Shown here: positions 45,367 through 54,616 of the stretch, one piece after another | Position numbering within the stretch: position 1 is the stretch's first letter | How the letters are laid out: every line of letters starts with the position of its first letter | From: an uncultured archaeon | GTDB taxonomy: Archaea > Iainarchaeota > Iainarchaeia > Iainarchaeales > VGJJ01 | DNA length: 64,000 nucleotides | Assembly: GCA_964480125.1 (NCBI GenBank) | Contig: CAYZNV010000003.1 | Coordinates: 3,201 to 67,200, forward strand | Direction of reading: 5' to 3' | Notes under the pieces: model-generated | Database searches by the model: none | Told to the model about the DNA's origin: nothing | What the model saw: only the letters and a program-made list of their open reading frames with translations | Translations under genes and position numbers: made by a program

Positions 45367-45710
45367 TGGCGAAAAAAATAACCAAGAAAACAAAAATAAC
45401 AAAATCCAACGCAAACCAAAGCCTTGAACGCGCGCTCGAAACGAAAGTGGCACGCTATGAATCGCTCACAAAAAAGGGATTAGAAAAAATCTCTATTCTC
45501 GCGCGGAAGGGGAGCAAAGAATATGCGATTGCGCTGGATTTTATCTCCATGGCACAAAATTATTTCAATGACGCCAAACACTTCCGAGCACACGGGGAAA
45601 TGCTTATTTCACTCGCGGCTTTCTCGTACGCCCACGCATGGTTAGACGCAGGCGTGCGCGCGGGACTCTTCGATGGAAAGGGCGACGACCAATTATTCAC
45701 ATTGCCATGA
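45363..45710 (+). CDS. Conserved hypothetical protein (DUF357-like)
   Basis: 115-aa ORF overlapping the dph5 stop by 4 nt. Confidence 0.3.
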   Translation: MMAKKITKKTKITKSNANQSLERALETKVARYESLTKKGLEKISILARKGSKEYAIALDFISMAQNYFNDAKHFRAHGEMLISLAAFSYAHAWLDAGVRAGLFDGKGDDQLFTLP

Positions 45711-45723
45711 ACGACGAGGGAAT

Positions 45724-46206
45724 ATGATGCGCATTGCAGAAGGAAATGAGGAAGTTGAGTGTAAAAACTACTTGTTAATCGCGGCCCAACATGCCGAAAA
45801 ATCCGATTGTTTTCAATCAGCGCGAGGAAGTATTATCGTTAAGGAGAACGAGATAATCGGAACGGGATACAATGCATTTCCAGCTGGAAAAAGAGATGAT
45901 AGTTGTAAAATGAACCAACTAGAAAAAAACTTCAAATCTGATCGAAGTTGTTGTGTTCATGCAGAACAACGTGCAATCATGCAAGCGCTTATGAATGAAC
46001 CAAAAAAGCTCATTGGTTCACGCATCTACTACGTTCGATTAGGAGAGAATAAAGAACCTGTTTTTTCTCGTCAACCATCTTGTACCGTTTGCAGTAAAAT
46101 GGCATTAGATGCTGGGATTGCTGAATTTGTGTTATGGCACAAAGAAGGAATTACAATTTATACTACTGAAGAGTATAATCGTTTATCCTTCGCGTACAGT
46201 GAGTAG
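45724..46206 (+). CDS. dCMP/cytidine deaminase family zinc enzyme
   Basis: CCVHAEQRAI and SCTVCSKM zinc-ligand motifs (HAE...PCxxC); start set at MMRIAEG. Confidence 0.7.
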   Translation: MMRIAEGNEEVECKNYLLIAAQHAEKSDCFQSARGSIIVKENEIIGTGYNAFPAGKRDDSCKMNQLEKNFKSDRSCCVHAEQRAIMQALMNEPKKLIGSRIYYVRLGENKEPVFSRQPSCTVCSKMALDAGIAEFVLWHKEGITIYTTEEYNRLSFAYSE

Positions 46207-46212
46207 TTACGT

Positions 46213-46815
46213 CTAAGGCGAAATAATTCCAAGATCAACAAGAAATTCCTTGGCTTCGTATAGAACTTTCTCTTTCGATTTTCCCCCAACTTCAATAATG
46301 TGAGTGGCATATTGTTTAGTTGGTTCAATATACTGGTGGTGCATGGGCAATAATATTTTCTCAATATAAACTGGATCAATAAATTTTGTTCGGCGGCGTA
46401 CGCGCAACTCATCCGGCAGATCAAGAAAAATACTACTATGCAGCTTGCTGCGCACATGCTTATCCCATAATGCCAAATAGCCTTCGAGGAGCATTATTCT
46501 CTTGGGAGCTATCATAAAACTAATGCGTCCTTTTTCTTTATACTCTGGATTAAATCGCTCACTTTTTGTTTGAACATTAATTGTTTCCCCTTTTTCTAGC
46601 GCATTAATATCCTCCAGTAATCGAGTAAAGTTAATTGCAGCTGGGTCATCCCAATTGGGCAAACCATCAACCATAGAAAGCTCTTCACGTTTGCGCTGAT
46701 AGTCATCCAATTGCAGTAGCCCAATGTCATTTGGAAACATATCCATTAACCCAAAGCCAAGGGTAGATTTTCCTGAGCCGCTTCCACCGGCGATTCCAAC
46801 AAAAATAGGTTTCAT
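46213..46815 (-). CDS. Uridine/cytidine kinase family P-loop kinase
   Basis: IFVGIAGGSGSGKSTL matches the Udk/PRK-family P-loop; start set at MKPIF. Confidence 0.65.
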   Translation of the reverse strand: MKPIFVGIAGGSGSGKSTLGFGLMDMFPNDIGLLQLDDYQRKREELSMVDGLPNWDDPAAINFTRLLEDINALEKGETINVQTKSERFNPEYKEKGRISFMIAPKRIMLLEGYLALWDKHVRSKLHSSIFLDLPDELRVRRRTKFIDPVYIEKILLPMHHQYIEPTKQYATHIIEVGGKSKEKVLYEAKEFLVDLGIISP

Positions 46816-46907
46816 AGTAGAGTTATATCCGTGAGGAAATATATTTATCGCATAGTTATTACGTTTCCGAAAGACCAACTTAAAAACCCCAAATCCATTC
46901 ATGCGAT

Positions 46908-47369
46908 ATGAAAGTCTACAAACGCAACCCCCTCGACATGGATTTGGGAGGAATCGAAGGGCTCCTACTCCCTGCGTTGGGTGTGCTCGTCGTATTATTT
47001 TTGGCCTTCCTGCTTATCGGGGGAACCAATGCAAATGTGCTTTCCGCGCGACTAGTGCAGAATCCCTTATCGCTTTCCGCGAATGATTCCACCATTCTGC
47101 AGGTGCACGTGTACAACCCCACTGCACAAATGGCCCAAGACATGGTCGTGCAAGTGAACGCCCCCAGCGCACCATTGCTATCCATTTCCCCAAAAAGACA
47201 AACCATCCCCTTCCTTGGAGGAGACGAAACACGCACGCTCGAATTCCTGGTGTTGCCCGTGGATGCGAGTGGAAACCCATTCACGCCCGGAAGCTACGTC
47301 ATCACAATCTCCACGCAACTCAATGGAAAACCCTATGACACGCAAGTGCAAGTCAACGTGGTAAAGTGA
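46908..47369 (+). CDS. Membrane-anchored beta-rich extracytoplasmic protein
   Basis: N-terminal TM; ST-rich beta-strand pattern. Confidence 0.3.
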   Translation: MKVYKRNPLDMDLGGIEGLLLPALGVLVVLFLAFLLIGGTNANVLSARLVQNPLSLSANDSTILQVHVYNPTAQMAQDMVVQVNAPSAPLLSISPKRQTIPFLGGDETRTLEFLVLPVDASGNPFTPGSYVITISTQLNGKPYDTQVQVNVVK

Positions 47370-47372
47370 GTC

Positions 47373-48647
47373 ATGAAAAAGATACATGTTTCTGGACCCG
47401 TTACGGGCAAGTCATTTTTTCCAAGTTTACAGGGATCCAAAAACGCCGCCCTCCCAATCATTGCAGCTGCTGCCATGTGCAAGAAAATAATTACACTCTC
47501 CAATATCCCACTGCTCGATGATGTTGAAAATCTCATTGCAGTCCTCCAATTCATCGGAGTAAAAATTAAACGTATCAGCACGCACTCGCTGCAAATTGAT
47601 GGTTCAACCATCAAAAAGTGGAAACTCCCTTCGCATCTAACAAAACAATCACGGGGGTCGATGTATGGATTAATCCCGGCATTATCTACATTCAACAAAT
47701 GCAAATTGGGGGTCACTGGCGGAGACGCATTTAATCGTTCATTCGTACTCCAAGAAAGAGTATTGCATGCTTTTGGATTTGCTTGTAAGTACCAAAAGAA
47801 CGGAATTGCCATCAATGGCACAATAAAGCCAGCTCACTTTAGGATCGGCGGAAAAGGAATCATCTCTAATTCAATGGCAGTAATACTATCATCCATGTGT
47901 GAGAAAAAAAGCACCATTGAAGAAATAGACTTTGAGCCAGAGGTCGAAGCAGTAATCGCTTTCATGCAAAGACTAGGGGTTAAAATCAAACGAAGGCGGC
48001 ACGCAATAACTATTACTCCACCAAAGTCCTTCAGGTCCATTCATTTTCAAGTCCCCTCTGATCGGATTCAGGCACAAACATGGGTGCTGATTGGAATTGC
48101 AACACATACAGCCATCTCAATCCCTTCTTCGATGCTTGCAAATTTTGGCGCTTTTACGGAATGCATCAAAGAGATGGGGGTGAAAGTGCAATCCAGCAAA
48201 AAACACACCCGATTTATCCCACCGAAGAAGCTCTTGCCCGCGCGCTTCACCACCAATCGTTTCCCTGCCATCCACTCCGATATCGTGCCTATTTTTGTTG
48301 CCCTACTCACACAATCCCACGGAAATTCATCCATTCGTGAGAGCTATCCCATTAATCGTTTTGCCTATGTCCCTGCGCTAAAACAAATGGGTGCAGTCAT
48401 CAGCCACACAAAAGACACCATTCAAGTTATGGGGCCCACCCCGATTGCTGGAAAAATAATCACGGAAAACATGGGCATTCGTGAAACGATGGCCGTCATC
48501 CTGGCAGGATTAATCGGATCAGGCAAAACCACAATTCAAAATGGACAGGCGATTTTGCGTGGATACGAGTGGCAGTTCATGAATGAGATCAATCGGCTTG
48601 CAAAAGGACAAGTAATCCAACTTGATGGTTTTGACCGCCTCCAATAA
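47373..48647 (+). CDS. UDP-GlcNAc enolpyruvyl transferase (MurA)-like EPT-fold enzyme, Asp variant
   Basis: N-terminus SGPVTG...GSKNAALPIIAAAAM matches the MurA GAKNAALPIL block; the loop GVTGGDAFNRS aligns to MurA SLPGGCTIGARP with Asp replacing the catalytic Cys. Confidence 0.6.
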   Translation: MKKIHVSGPVTGKSFFPSLQGSKNAALPIIAAAAMCKKIITLSNIPLLDDVENLIAVLQFIGVKIKRISTHSLQIDGSTIKKWKLPSHLTKQSRGSMYGLIPALSTFNKCKLGVTGGDAFNRSFVLQERVLHAFGFACKYQKNGIAINGTIKPAHFRIGGKGIISNSMAVILSSMCEKKSTIEEIDFEPEVEAVIAFMQRLGVKIKRRRHAITITPPKSFRSIHFQVPSDRIQAQTWVLIGIATHTAISIPSSMLANFGAFTECIKEMGVKVQSSKKHTRFIPPKKLLPARFTTNRFPAIHSDIVPIFVALLTQSHGNSSIRESYPINRFAYVPALKQMGAVISHTKDTIQVMGPTPIAGKIITENMGIRETMAVILAGLIGSGKTTIQNGQAILRGYEWQFMNEINRLAKGQVIQLDGFDRLQ

Positions 48648-48671
48648 AAAGCCCTTTTTGGTCCCATCAAC

Positions 48672-49745
48672 ATGACCAGCAATTTTGTCCCACAACTATT
48701 CCAAGAAGAATTCTTTGAACAGAATAAAATAGACTCGCTCTATATCGTTTCGAATGAACAGTTAGTGGATCCCCTCCTGTGCAAGCTTACGGGAATCACC
48801 CAACTCAATTTTGGATATCGTTTTTTACAAACTGCAGAAAAAAATCTCCTCTTATGCAGCCCGCTTGAAGCCCGCAGCGTGGGAAAGCAATACCGAGGAA
48901 GGATGAAAATTATCCGCTCGCACAAGGACATCTACAAAAACCTCCATGCGTTCTTCGACAAGAAGCGCGTGGGGTTGAATCATGCATATATGACGGCGGG
49001 GCAACTCCTCGCACTCAAAGAAAAATTCCCCAAAACAAAATTCATCGACGTCAGTAATGCCCTCTATCAATCGCGCGGGATCAAGACAAAAGAAGAAATC
49101 AAAAAAATAAGCGAGGCCGCGCACATCTCGCAAGAAGTATCTCACCAATTCCCAGAGTGGGTGCACAAAAACATTACCGAACAGCAATTAATGGCACGCA
49201 TCAATTATGAATTCGCCCGCAACGCATGCGAGGAAGCATTTCCCACACTGGTTTGTTTTGGAGACAATGCGCGAGACATCCATCACTTCGTTTCCAATAA
49301 AAAATTAAAGAAAAATGAGACAATCCTCATTGATTTCGGGGCGAAGCATGAGGGATATTGCTCTGATCTTTCTCGCACGATGCACTTCGGAAAAGCCAGC
49401 GAGGGAAAGCACGCATTCTATGCAAAAACATTTGAGGCACAAGAAGCAGGAATTGCTGAATTAGTCCCCGGAAACCCTTCAAAGAAAGCCCACCTTGCAG
49501 CGGAAAAAGTGTTGGGGCACAAAATCCCTCATGGGCTAGGGCATGGCGTGGGATTGGAGACGCATGATTCCCCGGGTGTTATTTCTCCCTACCAAGAATG
49601 GAAAGTTTCCCCCGGAATGGTGTTGGCCGTGGAGCCAGGATATTATGGCAGTAGCGGGGGAATACGCATCGAAGACAACATCGTCATCACGCACGGTGGA
49701 AACAAACGCCTGAGCAAAGCACCGAAACACCTGATCGAGGTTTAG
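48672..49745 (+). CDS. M24-family metallopeptidase (Xaa-Pro aminopeptidase/prolidase-like)
   Basis: HGLGHGVGLETHD and the EPGYY...IRIEDN pita-bread motifs. Confidence 0.7.
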   Translation: MTSNFVPQLFQEEFFEQNKIDSLYIVSNEQLVDPLLCKLTGITQLNFGYRFLQTAEKNLLLCSPLEARSVGKQYRGRMKIIRSHKDIYKNLHAFFDKKRVGLNHAYMTAGQLLALKEKFPKTKFIDVSNALYQSRGIKTKEEIKKISEAAHISQEVSHQFPEWVHKNITEQQLMARINYEFARNACEEAFPTLVCFGDNARDIHHFVSNKKLKKNETILIDFGAKHEGYCSDLSRTMHFGKASEGKHAFYAKTFEAQEAGIAELVPGNPSKKAHLAAEKVLGHKIPHGLGHGVGLETHDSPGVISPYQEWKVSPGMVLAVEPGYYGSSGGIRIEDNIVITHGGNKRLSKAPKHLIEV

Positions 49746-49748
49746 GCC

Positions 49749-50564
49749 GTGCCCACTCCATCAAGAAGACGTGCAGAAAGTGAACGGCTACGTCGTGTGA
49801 AATGGAATATGAAAATCAGCCCTGGAGTGGTCAATCCGAATGATCTGCACGGAAGTAGTGCGACCCACCATGGACACCATCACTCGGCATCATACAAAGC
49901 CTATCATTTCATGCCGTTTTTGGTTGGATTAGATATGTATCGAAAACTGGGAAGGGTAATACTGGATGTAGGTAGCGGCAGCATGCGCATCACCGATTCC
50001 CATGGGCACAATCGCTTGCGTGCATACTATCCAACCGAAGGGAAAAAAATCATTCGCGTCGACTTGGCATTCAAAAAACGCAGCCAAATCGATGCGGGAA
50101 TGCTGGAAGTCCGAGCCGACATCGAAAATACGGCATTGAACACGCCCGAACAAAAAAAGCGATTTCTGGCCATCGCCAAGTTCCTCGAAATTGATCCACG
50201 CGAGAAAAAACCACATGTCGATACGTTGCTGTTATCAGATGTGTTGAATTATGTCAATTATCGCAGAGCCATCCTCGGATTGCTTCGATTCGTGAAACCG
50301 GGTGGAAGAATTATCATCTATAATCGCCCCGAGCACGGATTTTCAACTTTGTATTCAGAAAAACGACCAAGAGATAATGCGACCCTCATCCGTTCCCTCA
50401 AGCGCATGGGGCTCGAACTGGATTATGTCCACTATGAAACCCCTGAAGAAGCCGAGGAAATAATCGGGATTCGAGCCCGTCGAGGCATTCAAGGCAGGGG
50501 ATATGTCCCAGATGACAAAGAAAAACGCACCATTATCATCGTCGCACGCAAGAAAGCGCAGTGA
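49749..50564 (+). CDS. Putative class I SAM methyltransferase with His-rich N-terminus
   Basis: ILDVGSGS motif I and VKPGGRIIIY. Confidence 0.4.
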   Translation: MPTPSRRRAESERLRRVKWNMKISPGVVNPNDLHGSSATHHGHHHSASYKAYHFMPFLVGLDMYRKLGRVILDVGSGSMRITDSHGHNRLRAYYPTEGKKIIRVDLAFKKRSQIDAGMLEVRADIENTALNTPEQKKRFLAIAKFLEIDPREKKPHVDTLLLSDVLNYVNYRRAILGLLRFVKPGGRIIIYNRPEHGFSTLYSEKRPRDNATLIRSLKRMGLELDYVHYETPEEAEEIIGIRARRGIQGRGYVPDDKEKRTIIIVARKKAQ

Positions 50565-50618
50565 GTGTCTTGCGGGGGACAATTCCAAATATAAGTCTGC
50601 GCGCACCCATCATACCAC

Positions 50619-52087: not shown

Positions 52088-54616
52088 ATGCAATCCAAAA
52101 TCCATGCTACTCTTTTTTCCTTCATCCTCGTACTAGCAATGATTGGGACAATACCGAGTGCATGGGGTCTAGCCGAAGAGCCCCCAGCTGAACTCGATGA
52201 CACACTCGCGGATATAATCGAGGACGGGATTGCGGTCTCTTATACCACGCAAGCATGGTCTTCCCAGTACAATTTCCCCCAATCCTATTTCTCAGTGGAC
52301 GCGCTGGATTTCTATGATAATGCTATTGATTTTGGAGGAGTAGGATATTTCGCAATCGGCCTTTCTTATTTGCAGAACCCCCAGCTCGCAGACCTGGATA
52401 TCAATCAAAACACTCAGACTGAAATCCGAGCGCTTGCCGATCGCATGCTGCCATTCGTGTGGACTCCCGATGGAACGACGTGGGGAACGCACCACAAAGG
52501 AGTATTACCCAATGGAGTGACAACGAATGTGGTCACGGAATTGAAAGGAATCAATGGCACCAGCAACGCATGTAATGAATTGAGTATCAAATACAACGCA
52601 TGGGCCGTCCCTGAGAGCACGACGAATGCGCTTACCACATCCAACCTCGAATCCATCAGCGGAATCGGCACCCTATTCTTGTTGGCATCCACCACGAACA
52701 CGCCAAATACCACTGCATATCTCACTACGGCCAAAAACATGGGAGAACTTTTACTTTCGGCAATCATCACACCCGAAAGCGAATCATTCGGTATTCATCC
52801 CTCACAGCTCATCGACGATTACAATAATTCCATCCCCATTGGAATGATGCCGCGCGAATTCATCATCAAGACGGATAGCCCTGACACCCCATTGTGCAGC
52901 GATGGGGGCACCATCAAAATCCAGGAGAATGAAAAAACCCAATTAGCATTCACCGCACTTTTCTTCGACCGCTTGTTTCAGGCAACCGATGATGCACGAT
53001 TTGAGCGAGCAAAAGACTATCTCATCGACGGAATCCTTTCCCTGCAGGAATGCGATGGAAGTTTTCGCAATTACTCACGCTGGGAAGGACCGGGAAAGCG
53101 CGTCGTGACATGCACGCCGTCCGACGGGAGTGCGGAATACGAGCCCTATCCCTCTAATGCCACGCTCGCAGACACGCGCGGTCTTTTCTTGGACAATGCT
53201 ACTATCCTCTATTTGTTGCTCCAAGCCCAACCCACGATTTACTCTGATGATGCACGCTTCCGCAAGGCCGTACAATTCCTATTGGAACTCGAAGAAAAGG
53301 ATGGTGGAAATGGATACCGCACGAATGGGAGCCCATTGCGATATGCATCCTACTCCCTTCCTGAAAAGAGCGAGCCCCTGGCGCGATTGCTGATATCTAA
53401 TGTTTTCCTACGCTCTTCCTGCGAAGAAAGCGATTCATCCATCGAAGAAAGATTGCAATCAAAGGCATATTATCTGATGAACGCCAGCCAAGCCTATATC
53501 CAAACCGATATCGATTCCAAAATCAACAACGCAGTCGGACCCACTGTGGGCCCCCACTTCACTGCAATCGCTGCGACCGCGAATAGCTGGAAAATCATCA
53601 CCAAAGGATGCGCAGACTGCGTCGATGTGGATGGAGACGGGCACATTGATGGGGCGTGCGCTGGAGACACTGAGAAATACGATTGCAATGAAAATGACGC
53701 GAGTATTTTTCCCGGGGCCACAGAAGTATGCGATGAAGTCGACAATGATTGTGATGGAAAAGTGGATGATGGATTCGATGCCGATGATGATGGCGTAAGC
53801 ATTTGCGCCAACGACTGCAACGATAATGATGATAAAGTCTATCCAGGAGCACGCGAGCTATTGGATGAAAAGGATAATGACTGCAACGAAAAAACCGACG
53901 ACACTGGAATTTTGGTGCGTGTCATGGATGATTTGAATAATGGAATTCCAAATATCCAAGTCCATTTCACTGCACATGGGAATGCGTGCGTGAATTCATT
54001 CGCACTGCGCGTGGAAAACATTCCCTCGATTGTGCAGCAATGCAAAATAGAAGCCGAATGCACGACTGACCTGAATGGCTCCTGTCTCGGATTCTTCGAA
54101 AAAAATGGAGAATACGACGCCATCGCGGCAGTGGGAAATGAAGCCCTCTTTTCGGATGCCACTACATTCATCGTCGGAAACCGCATCAACCTCGATTTGC
54201 AGACCACTACTGGAATCAACGCAGCCACCCTTAACGGAAGCACCACTACTAGTGGAAGCCCAAAAAACTCCACAACACCCGATGAGGGAAGCTACCTCTT
54301 CATGGGGCTGCTAGTGATACTCCTCGTGGTCGGGGGAATCGGCGTCGCATTATTCTATCGCATGGGAAAAATACCCAAAATCACGCTCAACCTCGGAGGA
54401 AAAAATACTCCAACAAAAGCACCCACCAAGGGAAGCACTTCCCCTAGCAAAGCTGCACCCATTACAACTCCCACCCCAACAAAGAAAACAGATATGATTG
54501 TGGGGTTGAAGAAAGAAATGCCCATTGCCAGCACAACCAATTCCCCCACCCCACGCGAGCCCAACAAGCCCAAGTGGAAAGGCAATGATAGAACGATGCC
54601 GAAGGAATCGCAATAG
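52088..54616 (+). CDS. Large cell-surface protein with MopE-like Cys/Asp-rich repeats and C-terminal TM anchor
   Basis: Signal peptide; three C-x-D-x-D...PGA-E-CD-DNDC repeats (e.g. CNENDASIFPGATEVCDEVDNDCDGKVDDG); C-terminal TM LLVILLVVGGIGVALFY followed by a Thr/Pro/Lys-rich tail; 842 aa. Confidence 0.55.
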   Translation: MQSKIHATLFSFILVLAMIGTIPSAWGLAEEPPAELDDTLADIIEDGIAVSYTTQAWSSQYNFPQSYFSVDALDFYDNAIDFGGVGYFAIGLSYLQNPQLADLDINQNTQTEIRALADRMLPFVWTPDGTTWGTHHKGVLPNGVTTNVVTELKGINGTSNACNELSIKYNAWAVPESTTNALTTSNLESISGIGTLFLLASTTNTPNTTAYLTTAKNMGELLLSAIITPESESFGIHPSQLIDDYNNSIPIGMMPREFIIKTDSPDTPLCSDGGTIKIQENEKTQLAFTALFFDRLFQATDDARFERAKDYLIDGILSLQECDGSFRNYSRWEGPGKRVVTCTPSDGSAEYEPYPSNATLADTRGLFLDNATILYLLLQAQPTIYSDDARFRKAVQFLLELEEKDGGNGYRTNGSPLRYASYSLPEKSEPLARLLISNVFLRSSCEESDSSIEERLQSKAYYLMNASQAYIQTDIDSKINNAVGPTVGPHFTAIAATANSWKIITKGCADCVDVDGDGHIDGACAGDTEKYDCNENDASIFPGATEVCDEVDNDCDGKVDDGFDADDDGVSICANDCNDNDDKVYPGARELLDEKDNDCNEKTDDTGILVRVMDDLNNGIPNIQVHFTAHGNACVNSFALRVENIPSIVQQCKIEAECTTDLNGSCLGFFEKNGEYDAIAAVGNEALFSDATTFIVGNRINLDLQTTTGINAATLNGSTTTSGSPKNSTTPDEGSYLFMGLLVILLVVGGIGVALFYRMGKIPKITLNLGGKNTPTKAPTKGSTSPSKAAPITTPTPTKKTDMIVGLKKEMPIASTTNSPTPREPNKPKWKGNDRTMPKESQ

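Follow-up and report, generated by a model that had tools for sequence, protein, structure and literature searches.

MurA is treated as an enzyme of bacteria and plastids. A survey from 2024 reported it from no archaea (PMC11588093). Nevertheless, the stretch of 64,000 nucleotides analysed here (the window), which comes from an archaeon, carries an open reading frame (ORF) for a MurA-like enolpyruvyl transferase (EPT) of 424 amino acids, termed P0001, and the question arises what such a protein does in this organism. An earlier examination of the nucleotide sequence by itself (the sequence-only reading) had assigned the protein to the MurA side rather than to AroA, had noted an Asp in place of the catalytic Cys and had placed the gene in an operon with an M24 peptidase and a methyltransferase; as its role, either an acquired murein-like pathway or a different substrate was considered. 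This interpretation is partly supported by our results. We consider it probable that P0001 is a fast-evolving accessory EPT belonging to a separate Asp-loop subfamily and acting on a putative sugar-type acceptor, and that it serves neither murein synthesis nor an operon with the M24 gene.

P0001 is confirmed as a genuine and intact EPT-family protein with MurA fold. The ORF coordinates, the length and both quoted sequence strings were verified in the sequence. The Pfam family PF00275 matches residues 20-399 with 129.6 bits (gathering cut-off 22.8), which places the protein in the EPT superfamily. A compact AlphaFold2 (AF2) model, built with 58 homologues, reached a predicted local distance difference test (pLDDT) value of 95.1 and a predicted template modelling score (pTM) of 0.94. 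In a Foldseek comparison the top 50 PDB matches of this model were all EPT enzymes, with template modelling (TM) scores of 0.91-0.92 for MurA (root mean square deviation about 2 Å), 0.87 for NikO and 0.78-0.80 for AroA. The best sequence match among solved structures is the C116D variant of C. difficile MurA (PDB 6q0a), in which GGDA is aligned to GGDA. Asp118 of P0001 thereby stands opposite the engineered Asp of 6q0a and aligns with Cys115 of E. coli MurA, as had been proposed. With canonical MurA (E. coli, 1uae; C. difficile, 6q03) the protein shares the two-domain EPT fold, the N-terminal GxKNAxLP motif and eight active-site residues: K23, N24, R94, R122, D303, R329, R370 and R396 correspond to K22, N23, R91, R120, D305, R331, R371 and R397 of the E. 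coli enzyme. The catalytic and phosphoenolpyruvate (PEP)-binding set of canonical MurA is therefore complete, with K23, R122, D303 and R396 at the K22, R120, D305 and R397 positions and D118 at that of Cys115. Taken together, ORF coordinates, motifs, the alignment of the Asp and the confident superposition on MurA (TM 0.92) let the earlier observation stand.

However, P0001 is not a canonical MurA. Its identity to canonical enzymes is 24-32%, and it scores below the cut-off of both curated MurA models (TIGR01072, 230.3 bits against 392.7; NF006873, 236.9 bits against 297). For the aroA model TIGR01356 the value is far lower (69.1 bits, cut-off 287), so that membership in AroA is not indicated either. 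In E. coli numbering the protein carries the changes A92G, C115D, K160G, S162G, V163I, G164I, D369G and L370I. Several of these fall on K160, S162-V163-G164 and D369-L370, which we take to be positions of the UDP-N-acetylglucosamine (UDP-GlcNAc) pocket in published MurA structures; P0001 has G at 160, G-I-I at 162-164 and G-I at 369-370. Canonical MurA reads S-V-G/T at 162-164 and D-L/I at 369-370; in our sample, 39 canonical rows retain S162, and 41 each retain V163 and D369. Among the six membership comparisons that were run, P0001 departs from canonical MurA in four, namely in curated score, pocket residues, tree position and pathway context.

The same changes recur in other proteins. We define here an Asp-loop MurA-like subfamily of 15 proteins (P0001 and 14 others), which share A92G, C115D, S162G, V163I and D369G and group together in the tree. 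All five changes are present in P0001, where they correspond to G95, D118, G162-I163 and G368-I369. Further changes are frequent in the subfamily (K160D, G164T/S, P121S and L370I), and its consensus reads D at 160, G-I-T/S at 162-164 and G-I at 369-370. In a quick maximum likelihood tree of 61 rows, the 15 signature proteins lie on one side of a branch with a Shimodaira-Hasegawa-like approximate likelihood ratio test value of 96, and in a careful maximum likelihood tree of 45 rows the split from canonical MurA is supported with 99/100. P0001 stands outside the canonical group. Phylogeny had been recommended as a check by the sequence-only reading, and it shows no grouping with AroA. The assignment to the MurA side was thus borne out by sequence, profile, fold and tree, with the addition that the protein lies outside canonical MurA. 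A profile built from the 15 proteins gives 277-328 bits with MurA structures, 173 with NikO and at most 107 with AroA, which identifies the group as a MurA-side subfamily and not as NikO-like. The best E-value of a member against the curated MurA model is 1.6e-93, which also points below the equivalog cut-off.

The comparison of the Asp with the MurA of mycobacteria and chlamydiae did not hold. Natural Asp-type canonical MurA is the fosfomycin-insensitive kind known from these bacteria. Seven canonical Asp-type rows in our sample keep S162, V163 and D369 and are scattered inside the canonical group next to Cys-type sisters, unlike P0001, whose Asp comes together with the other changes that mark a subfamily of its own.

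Close relatives of P0001 are rare. An exhaustive HMMER search of 1.84 billion representative proteins delivered a single nearer protein, P0125, with 316 bits and 39-40% identity; it was followed by a set about 30% identical at 160-191 bits, and canonical MurA began at 157 bits or less. P0001 and P0125 are sisters in every tree (98-100; 100/99). A word-indexed search of 5.8 billion proteins returned only an identical fragment and then bacterial MurA at no more than 32% identity. Scanning contigs of genomes with a two-sequence alignment gave no nearer relative (best 30%) and was swamped by canonical bacterial MurA via the SKNAxLPII pattern. When metagenome contigs were scanned with P0125 as query, no match exceeded 31% identity.

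The gene order in relatives decides the operon question. The host was correctly taken for an archaeon: it belongs to Candidatus Iainarchaeum (DPANN), the window contains archaeal neighbours (DUF63, a Dph5-type methylase, DUF357, NucS and enolase), and the M24 orthologue of the closest genome, which is recorded as Candidatus Iainarchaeum / Diapherotrites, is 89% identical. The M24 gene belongs to the core and is present in all 17 genomes of the genus. The gene of the small membrane protein in front of P0001 is likewise core and occurs with or without a MurA-like gene behind it. In the closest relative, a complete genome with 75-80% nucleotide identity, the membrane-protein gene is directly followed by the M24 gene; this genome has no MurA-like gene, no udk-like kinase and, between M24 and NucS, no P0003. 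Two more distant members of the genus have in the same slot a DHH/DHHA1 gene on the opposite strand, which is missing from the window genome and its closest relative. The run is thus a patchwork in which accessory genes were inserted, each separately, next to two core genes. The MurA-like gene, P0003 and the udk-like kinase are separate accessory genes, and the adjacency to M24 is an accident of insertion, so that the proposed functional unit with M24 and methyltransferase has to be given up. The distance of 24 nucleotides between P0001 and M24 had been read correctly; the membrane-protein gene is separated from P0001 by 3 nucleotides. Coordinates are given in Table 1.

Table 1. Genes and gene clusters discussed in the text. 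Coordinates refer to the window unless preceded by a contig label (L).
Feature	Coordinates	Strand	Basis or remark
153-aa protein with N-terminal hydrophobic membrane anchor	46908-47369	+	ORF; without Pfam family
P0001, MurA-like EPT, 424 aa	47373-48647	+	ORF, profiles, fold
P0002, M24B Xaa-Pro peptidase family protein, 357 aa	48672-49745	+	Peptidase_M24 and Creatinase_N
P0003, orphan gene, 271 aa with GTG start	49749-50564	+	weakly class I S-adenosylmethionine (SAM) methyltransferase-like
udk-like nucleoside kinase, PRK family	46213-46902	-	105 bits, cut-off 180
Cytidine/dCMP-deaminase-like ORF	45673-46206	+	just upstream of udk-like kinase
842-aa ORF with repeated MopE-type putative metal-binding motifs (PF11617)	52088-54616		kept in closest relative
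DHH/DHHA1 phosphoesterase-like gene, about 390 aa, slot between membrane protein and M24	L020:4644-5852; L019:7426-8604; L022:3423-4574	-; +; -	
Cluster loci of subfamily relatives	L119:1350-13473; L120:137-13903; L027:7174-16836		Pseudomonas, Methanosarcina, metagenomic organisms; also cupin

Outside the host, none of 16 genomes of the genus yielded the MurA-like gene, and in 15 of them no EPT-family gene is detectable with P0001 as query. A strong match was likewise missing from the 195 other genomes of the order; ten weak matches of at most 55 bits were obtained, and the one that was checked by Pfam is AroA. The gene is not unique, however: an independent metagenomic contig of a fairly close relative, L022, encodes P0125 in the same slot, in the order Dph5, DUF357, membrane protein, EPT, DHH. 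Its Dph5, membrane protein and DUF357 are 83%, 68% and 61% identical to those of the window, but the EPT only 39%. The simplest history is that the lineage acquired the gene once and lost it repeatedly, and that the remaining copies diverged very fast or exchanged alleles. Contamination or a chimeric assembly was considered and dismissed, since Iainarchaeum core genes lie on both sides and L022 repeats the adjacency of membrane protein and EPT. Next to this slot, the deaminase and the udk-like kinase are both absent from G002, G014 and L022; their scattered presence marks 45673-46902 as a hotspot of gene gain and loss. For the DPANN archaea, the locus offers a further example of fast-turnover accessory genes between core genes.

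What the subfamily may do is suggested by the surroundings of its other members. Named hosts are Pseudomonas syringae, P. asplenii, P. brassicacearum, P. kielensis, Acinetobacter pittii, A. nosocomialis and a Methanosarcina sp. (examples are WP_096116206.1 of P. syringae, WP_108011609.1 of A. pittii and WP_422545034.1 of Methanosarcina sp.). In five of six contexts looked at, a recurring type of cluster was found. It combines a 3-dehydroquinate synthase-like sugar-phosphate cyclase, a ROK kinase, a DegT aminotransferase, a GNAT protein, HAD phosphatases, a NUDIX protein, an APH-family kinase and a methyltransferase; some clusters add GH4/GFO oxidoreductases and a nucleotidyltransferase. A MurB-like reductase occurs in three of the five clusters, among them L119 and L120, and none was seen in L027. 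The Pseudomonas cluster is adjoined by a LuxR-solo gene, and the Methanosarcina cluster by integrase and DUF927 genes. Such a gene set would be in keeping with an undescribed route to an aminocyclitol or modified amino sugar bearing an enolpyruvyl or lactyl ether. The literature yielded nothing relevant on a role of MurA-like genes in DPANN or in clusters of the cyclitol or kirkamide type; P0001 is a real accessory gene, and its subfamily has, as far as we found, no characterised member. The bacterial and Methanosarcina proteins share signature and tree group with P0001, but their identity to it is only about 26-31%. They reside in cyclitol-type clusters, whereas the neighbours of P0001 are core housekeeping genes and none of the cluster partners was found in its host. 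Apart from the EPT, a tblastn search of the host genome with 31 proteins of three clusters hit nothing but methyltransferase and nucleotidyltransferase genes of a generic kind.

For the activity of P0001, its acceptor and the fate of its product we infer the following. In line with established EPT chemistry, a hydroxyl group of the acceptor would add to C2 of PEP and phosphate would then be eliminated. The loop residue Asp118 would take the acid/base role that is held by Cys115 in E. coli MurA. C115D variants of MurA are active and fosfomycin-resistant. Given these variants and the complete catalytic set, a working EPT that fosfomycin cannot alkylate is to be expected; as in natural Asp-type MurA and the engineered C115D/C116D enzymes (3v4t, 6q0a), which have Asp for the loop Cys, catalysis would be thiol-free, and insensitivity to fosfomycin is predicted. 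PEP could be supplied, because an enolase gene is annotated about 6 kb downstream of P0001. Since the acceptor pocket is unlike that of MurA and the relatives lie in amino-sugar or cyclitol clusters, the acceptor would most likely be an amino sugar of the GlcNAc type, or else a cyclitol or sugar that carries a nucleotide or phosphate as activating group; UDP-GlcNAc itself is a possible acceptor. The option of a different substrate, which had been one of two in the sequence-only reading, becomes the favoured one. As no reductase was found, the product would stay an unreduced carboxyvinyl ether. By default, we would guess surface glycosylation as the most plausible destination of such a sugar; the host genome encodes AglB, an AglH-like GT4 transferase and two sugar-1-phosphate nucleotidyltransferase-type genes. 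The gene itself is solitary and dispensable and lies in a variable slot between two core genes, and co-transcription with these neighbours is probable only because the genome is compact.

A more far-reaching version can be formulated, which we regard as quite unlikely in its entirety. Here, P0001 would be active and yield an unreduced, muramate-precursor-like carboxyvinyl-ether amino sugar that is displayed on surface glycans or released. In Pseudomonas, Acinetobacter and Methanosarcina, the subfamily would stand for a so far undescribed route to metabolites of the amino-sugar or carbasugar type that resemble muramic acid, and the DPANN gene would be a repurposed piece of this route. The EPT would act there together with an anomeric kinase, a cyclitol synthase and enzymes for amino and acetyl transfer; some clusters would add a MurB-like reductase.

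Several observations weigh against an accessory EPT with a sugar-type acceptor. The putative acceptor was deduced solely from the gene neighbourhoods of proteins that share about 30% identity with P0001. Neither GlmS nor a full GlmU was found in the host genome, so that the supply of UDP-GlcNAc itself is in doubt, and no glycosyltransferase, flippase or reductase adjoins the P0001 gene as a link to a glycan. The host assembly comprises 0.946 Mb in 28 contigs and is 92% complete, for which reason all absences from it count as 'not found' only. The subfamily is defined by residues that lie inside the alignment, and the trees were therefore repeated after removal of 12 such columns: the group was still recovered when the AroA outgroup was retained, but with a support of 33; once AroA and the odd row P0131 were left out, the support was 100. 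From these alignments we regard the split of the subfamily as robust and its rooting as unsure. Of 44 columns without variation among the 13 other clade members, P0001 keeps 37 and has changed seven, compared with four in P0125 and 0-4 in other members (leave-one-out). The losses include the Tyr/Phe328 equivalent, which is now Pro, and the FP(S/T)D motif, which reads IHSD; the terminal branch of P0001 (1.2) is the longest of the pair (P0125, 0.76). Residue losses and long branch fit relaxed constraint. They could belong to a decaying or functionless relic, that is, to the last survivor of a larger acquired cluster which is under relaxed selection and heading for the loss that most of the genus would already have undergone. 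This would also agree with the restriction of the gene to one genome of the genus, its absence from the closest relative, the low identity of the syntenic copy compared with its flanking genes and the lack of partner genes in the tblastn search. However, both lineages retain an open frame of full length with all catalytic residues, although the two proteins are only 39% identical. In a streamlined genome of 0.95 Mb, one would expect a dead gene to acquire stops or to be deleted. In addition, the AF2 model is confident and compact. We hold a relic to be unlikely, while giving it serious consideration, and maintain that P0001 is probably a working accessory EPT.

The leading option of the sequence-only reading was that P0001 is a genuine UDP-GlcNAc enolpyruvyl transferase (EC 2.5.1.7) and supplies a murein-like or muramic-acid route which the host has acquired. 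MurA is indeed the best match by sequence, profile and fold, the equivalents of N23, R91, R120 and D305 are kept, and C115D-type variants exist among solved structures. However, family searches of the host genome revealed no MurB (TIGR00179), MurB_C (PF02873), Mur ligase (PF08245) or FrhB-type reductase. A murein or muramic-acid pathway was dropped as a candidate on these grounds, and with both curated scores too low, the position outside the canonical group, and the segment 160-164 and D369/L370 altered, a true MurA is very unlikely. A non-UDP-GlcNAc acceptor outside wall synthesis is known from NikO/PolA, the uridine monophosphate (UMP) 3'-enolpyruvyl transferases of nikkomycin and polyoxin synthesis (PDB 4fqd), which have the EPT fold. 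A NikO-like role would run from cytidine via uridine and UMP to enolpyruvyl-UMP, using the deaminase and the udk-like kinase. In its favour, three accessory genes related to uridine nucleotides lie within 3 kb, and NikO is a structural match (TM 0.87). We consider this role highly improbable, because P0001 matches NikO far more weakly than MurA in sequence (56 versus 131 bits), as does the clade profile (173 versus 300-328 bits). Moreover, the kinase is encoded on the other strand, and no radical-SAM or other nikkomycin/polyoxin-type genes were seen. In addition, presence is uncoupled: L022 has the EPT without deaminase and kinase, and G015 the deaminase without EPT. Finally, the gene is the sole EPT of the host genome and might replace AroA as the 5-enolpyruvylshikimate-3-phosphate (EPSP) synthase of the organism; a plant MurA with weak EPSP synthase activity has been reported (PMC11588093). 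The sequence-only reading had named flanking shikimate genes together with the lack of an aroA elsewhere as a sign that the MurA call is wrong. No aroA is present elsewhere in the genome; however, no shikimate genes were found, chorismate synthase and shikimate dehydrogenase being absent in family searches, and the aroA model gives only 69 bits against at least 230 for MurA. With 15 of 16 other genomes of the genus also devoid of a detectable EPT-family gene (P0001 as query), an AroA replacement was rejected, and its probability is practically negligible.

MurA-side EPTs do occur in archaea, as a separate Asp-loop subfamily unrelated to murein. The public annotations of its members vary between MurA, AroA and hypothetical protein; such labels are no evidence of peptidoglycan, nor do they mark the proteins as fosfomycin targets. 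More valuable than the P0001 gene itself is the subfamily cluster in Pseudomonas, Acinetobacter and Methanosarcina, which provides a testable lead to a new sugar or cyclitol metabolite.

With regard to the neighbouring genes, most details of the sequence-only reading were confirmed. An N-terminal hydrophobic anchor is present in the protein that precedes P0001, and the prolidase-like M24 peptidase is seen in P0002 with both of its domains. That the codon usage of P0001 is AT-richer than in the neighbours is modestly true: its GC content at third codon positions is 0.447, compared with 0.51-0.61 in the core neighbours. The lowest values of the stretch belong to the deaminase (0.326) and the udk-like kinase (0.348; about 0.52 in comparison), which are far AT-richer.

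The last gene of the run, P0003, had been called a methyltransferase at a distance of 3 nucleotides. This distance applies with the GTG start; with an ATG at 49809 the gap is 63 nucleotides. A public gene call that is nearly identical to P0003 (99%) has 251 amino acids and matches the ATG, which is thus probably the start. The assignment as methyltransferase is weakly supported by a sub-threshold match to Methyltransf_11 (16 bits, E 0.015), and its one homologue gives 19 bits. A language-model search for look-alikes points to a methyltransferase with a score of 0.95, which serves as a lead only. In 5.8 billion proteins, the relatives of P0003 comprise the 99%-identical call of 251 amino acids and one protein of 41% identity (two clusters). 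The motifs DxGSGS, LLLSDVLNYV and KPGGRI and a His-rich N-terminal stretch (HHGHHH) are recognisable, and AF2 prediction from the single sequence gave a pLDDT of 40. Downstream of P0003, a TATA-like box, AATATAAG (within 50575-50618), is located about 25-30 nucleotides upstream of the NucS start codon. This box points to a separate promoter for NucS and to an end of the same-strand gene run at 50564.

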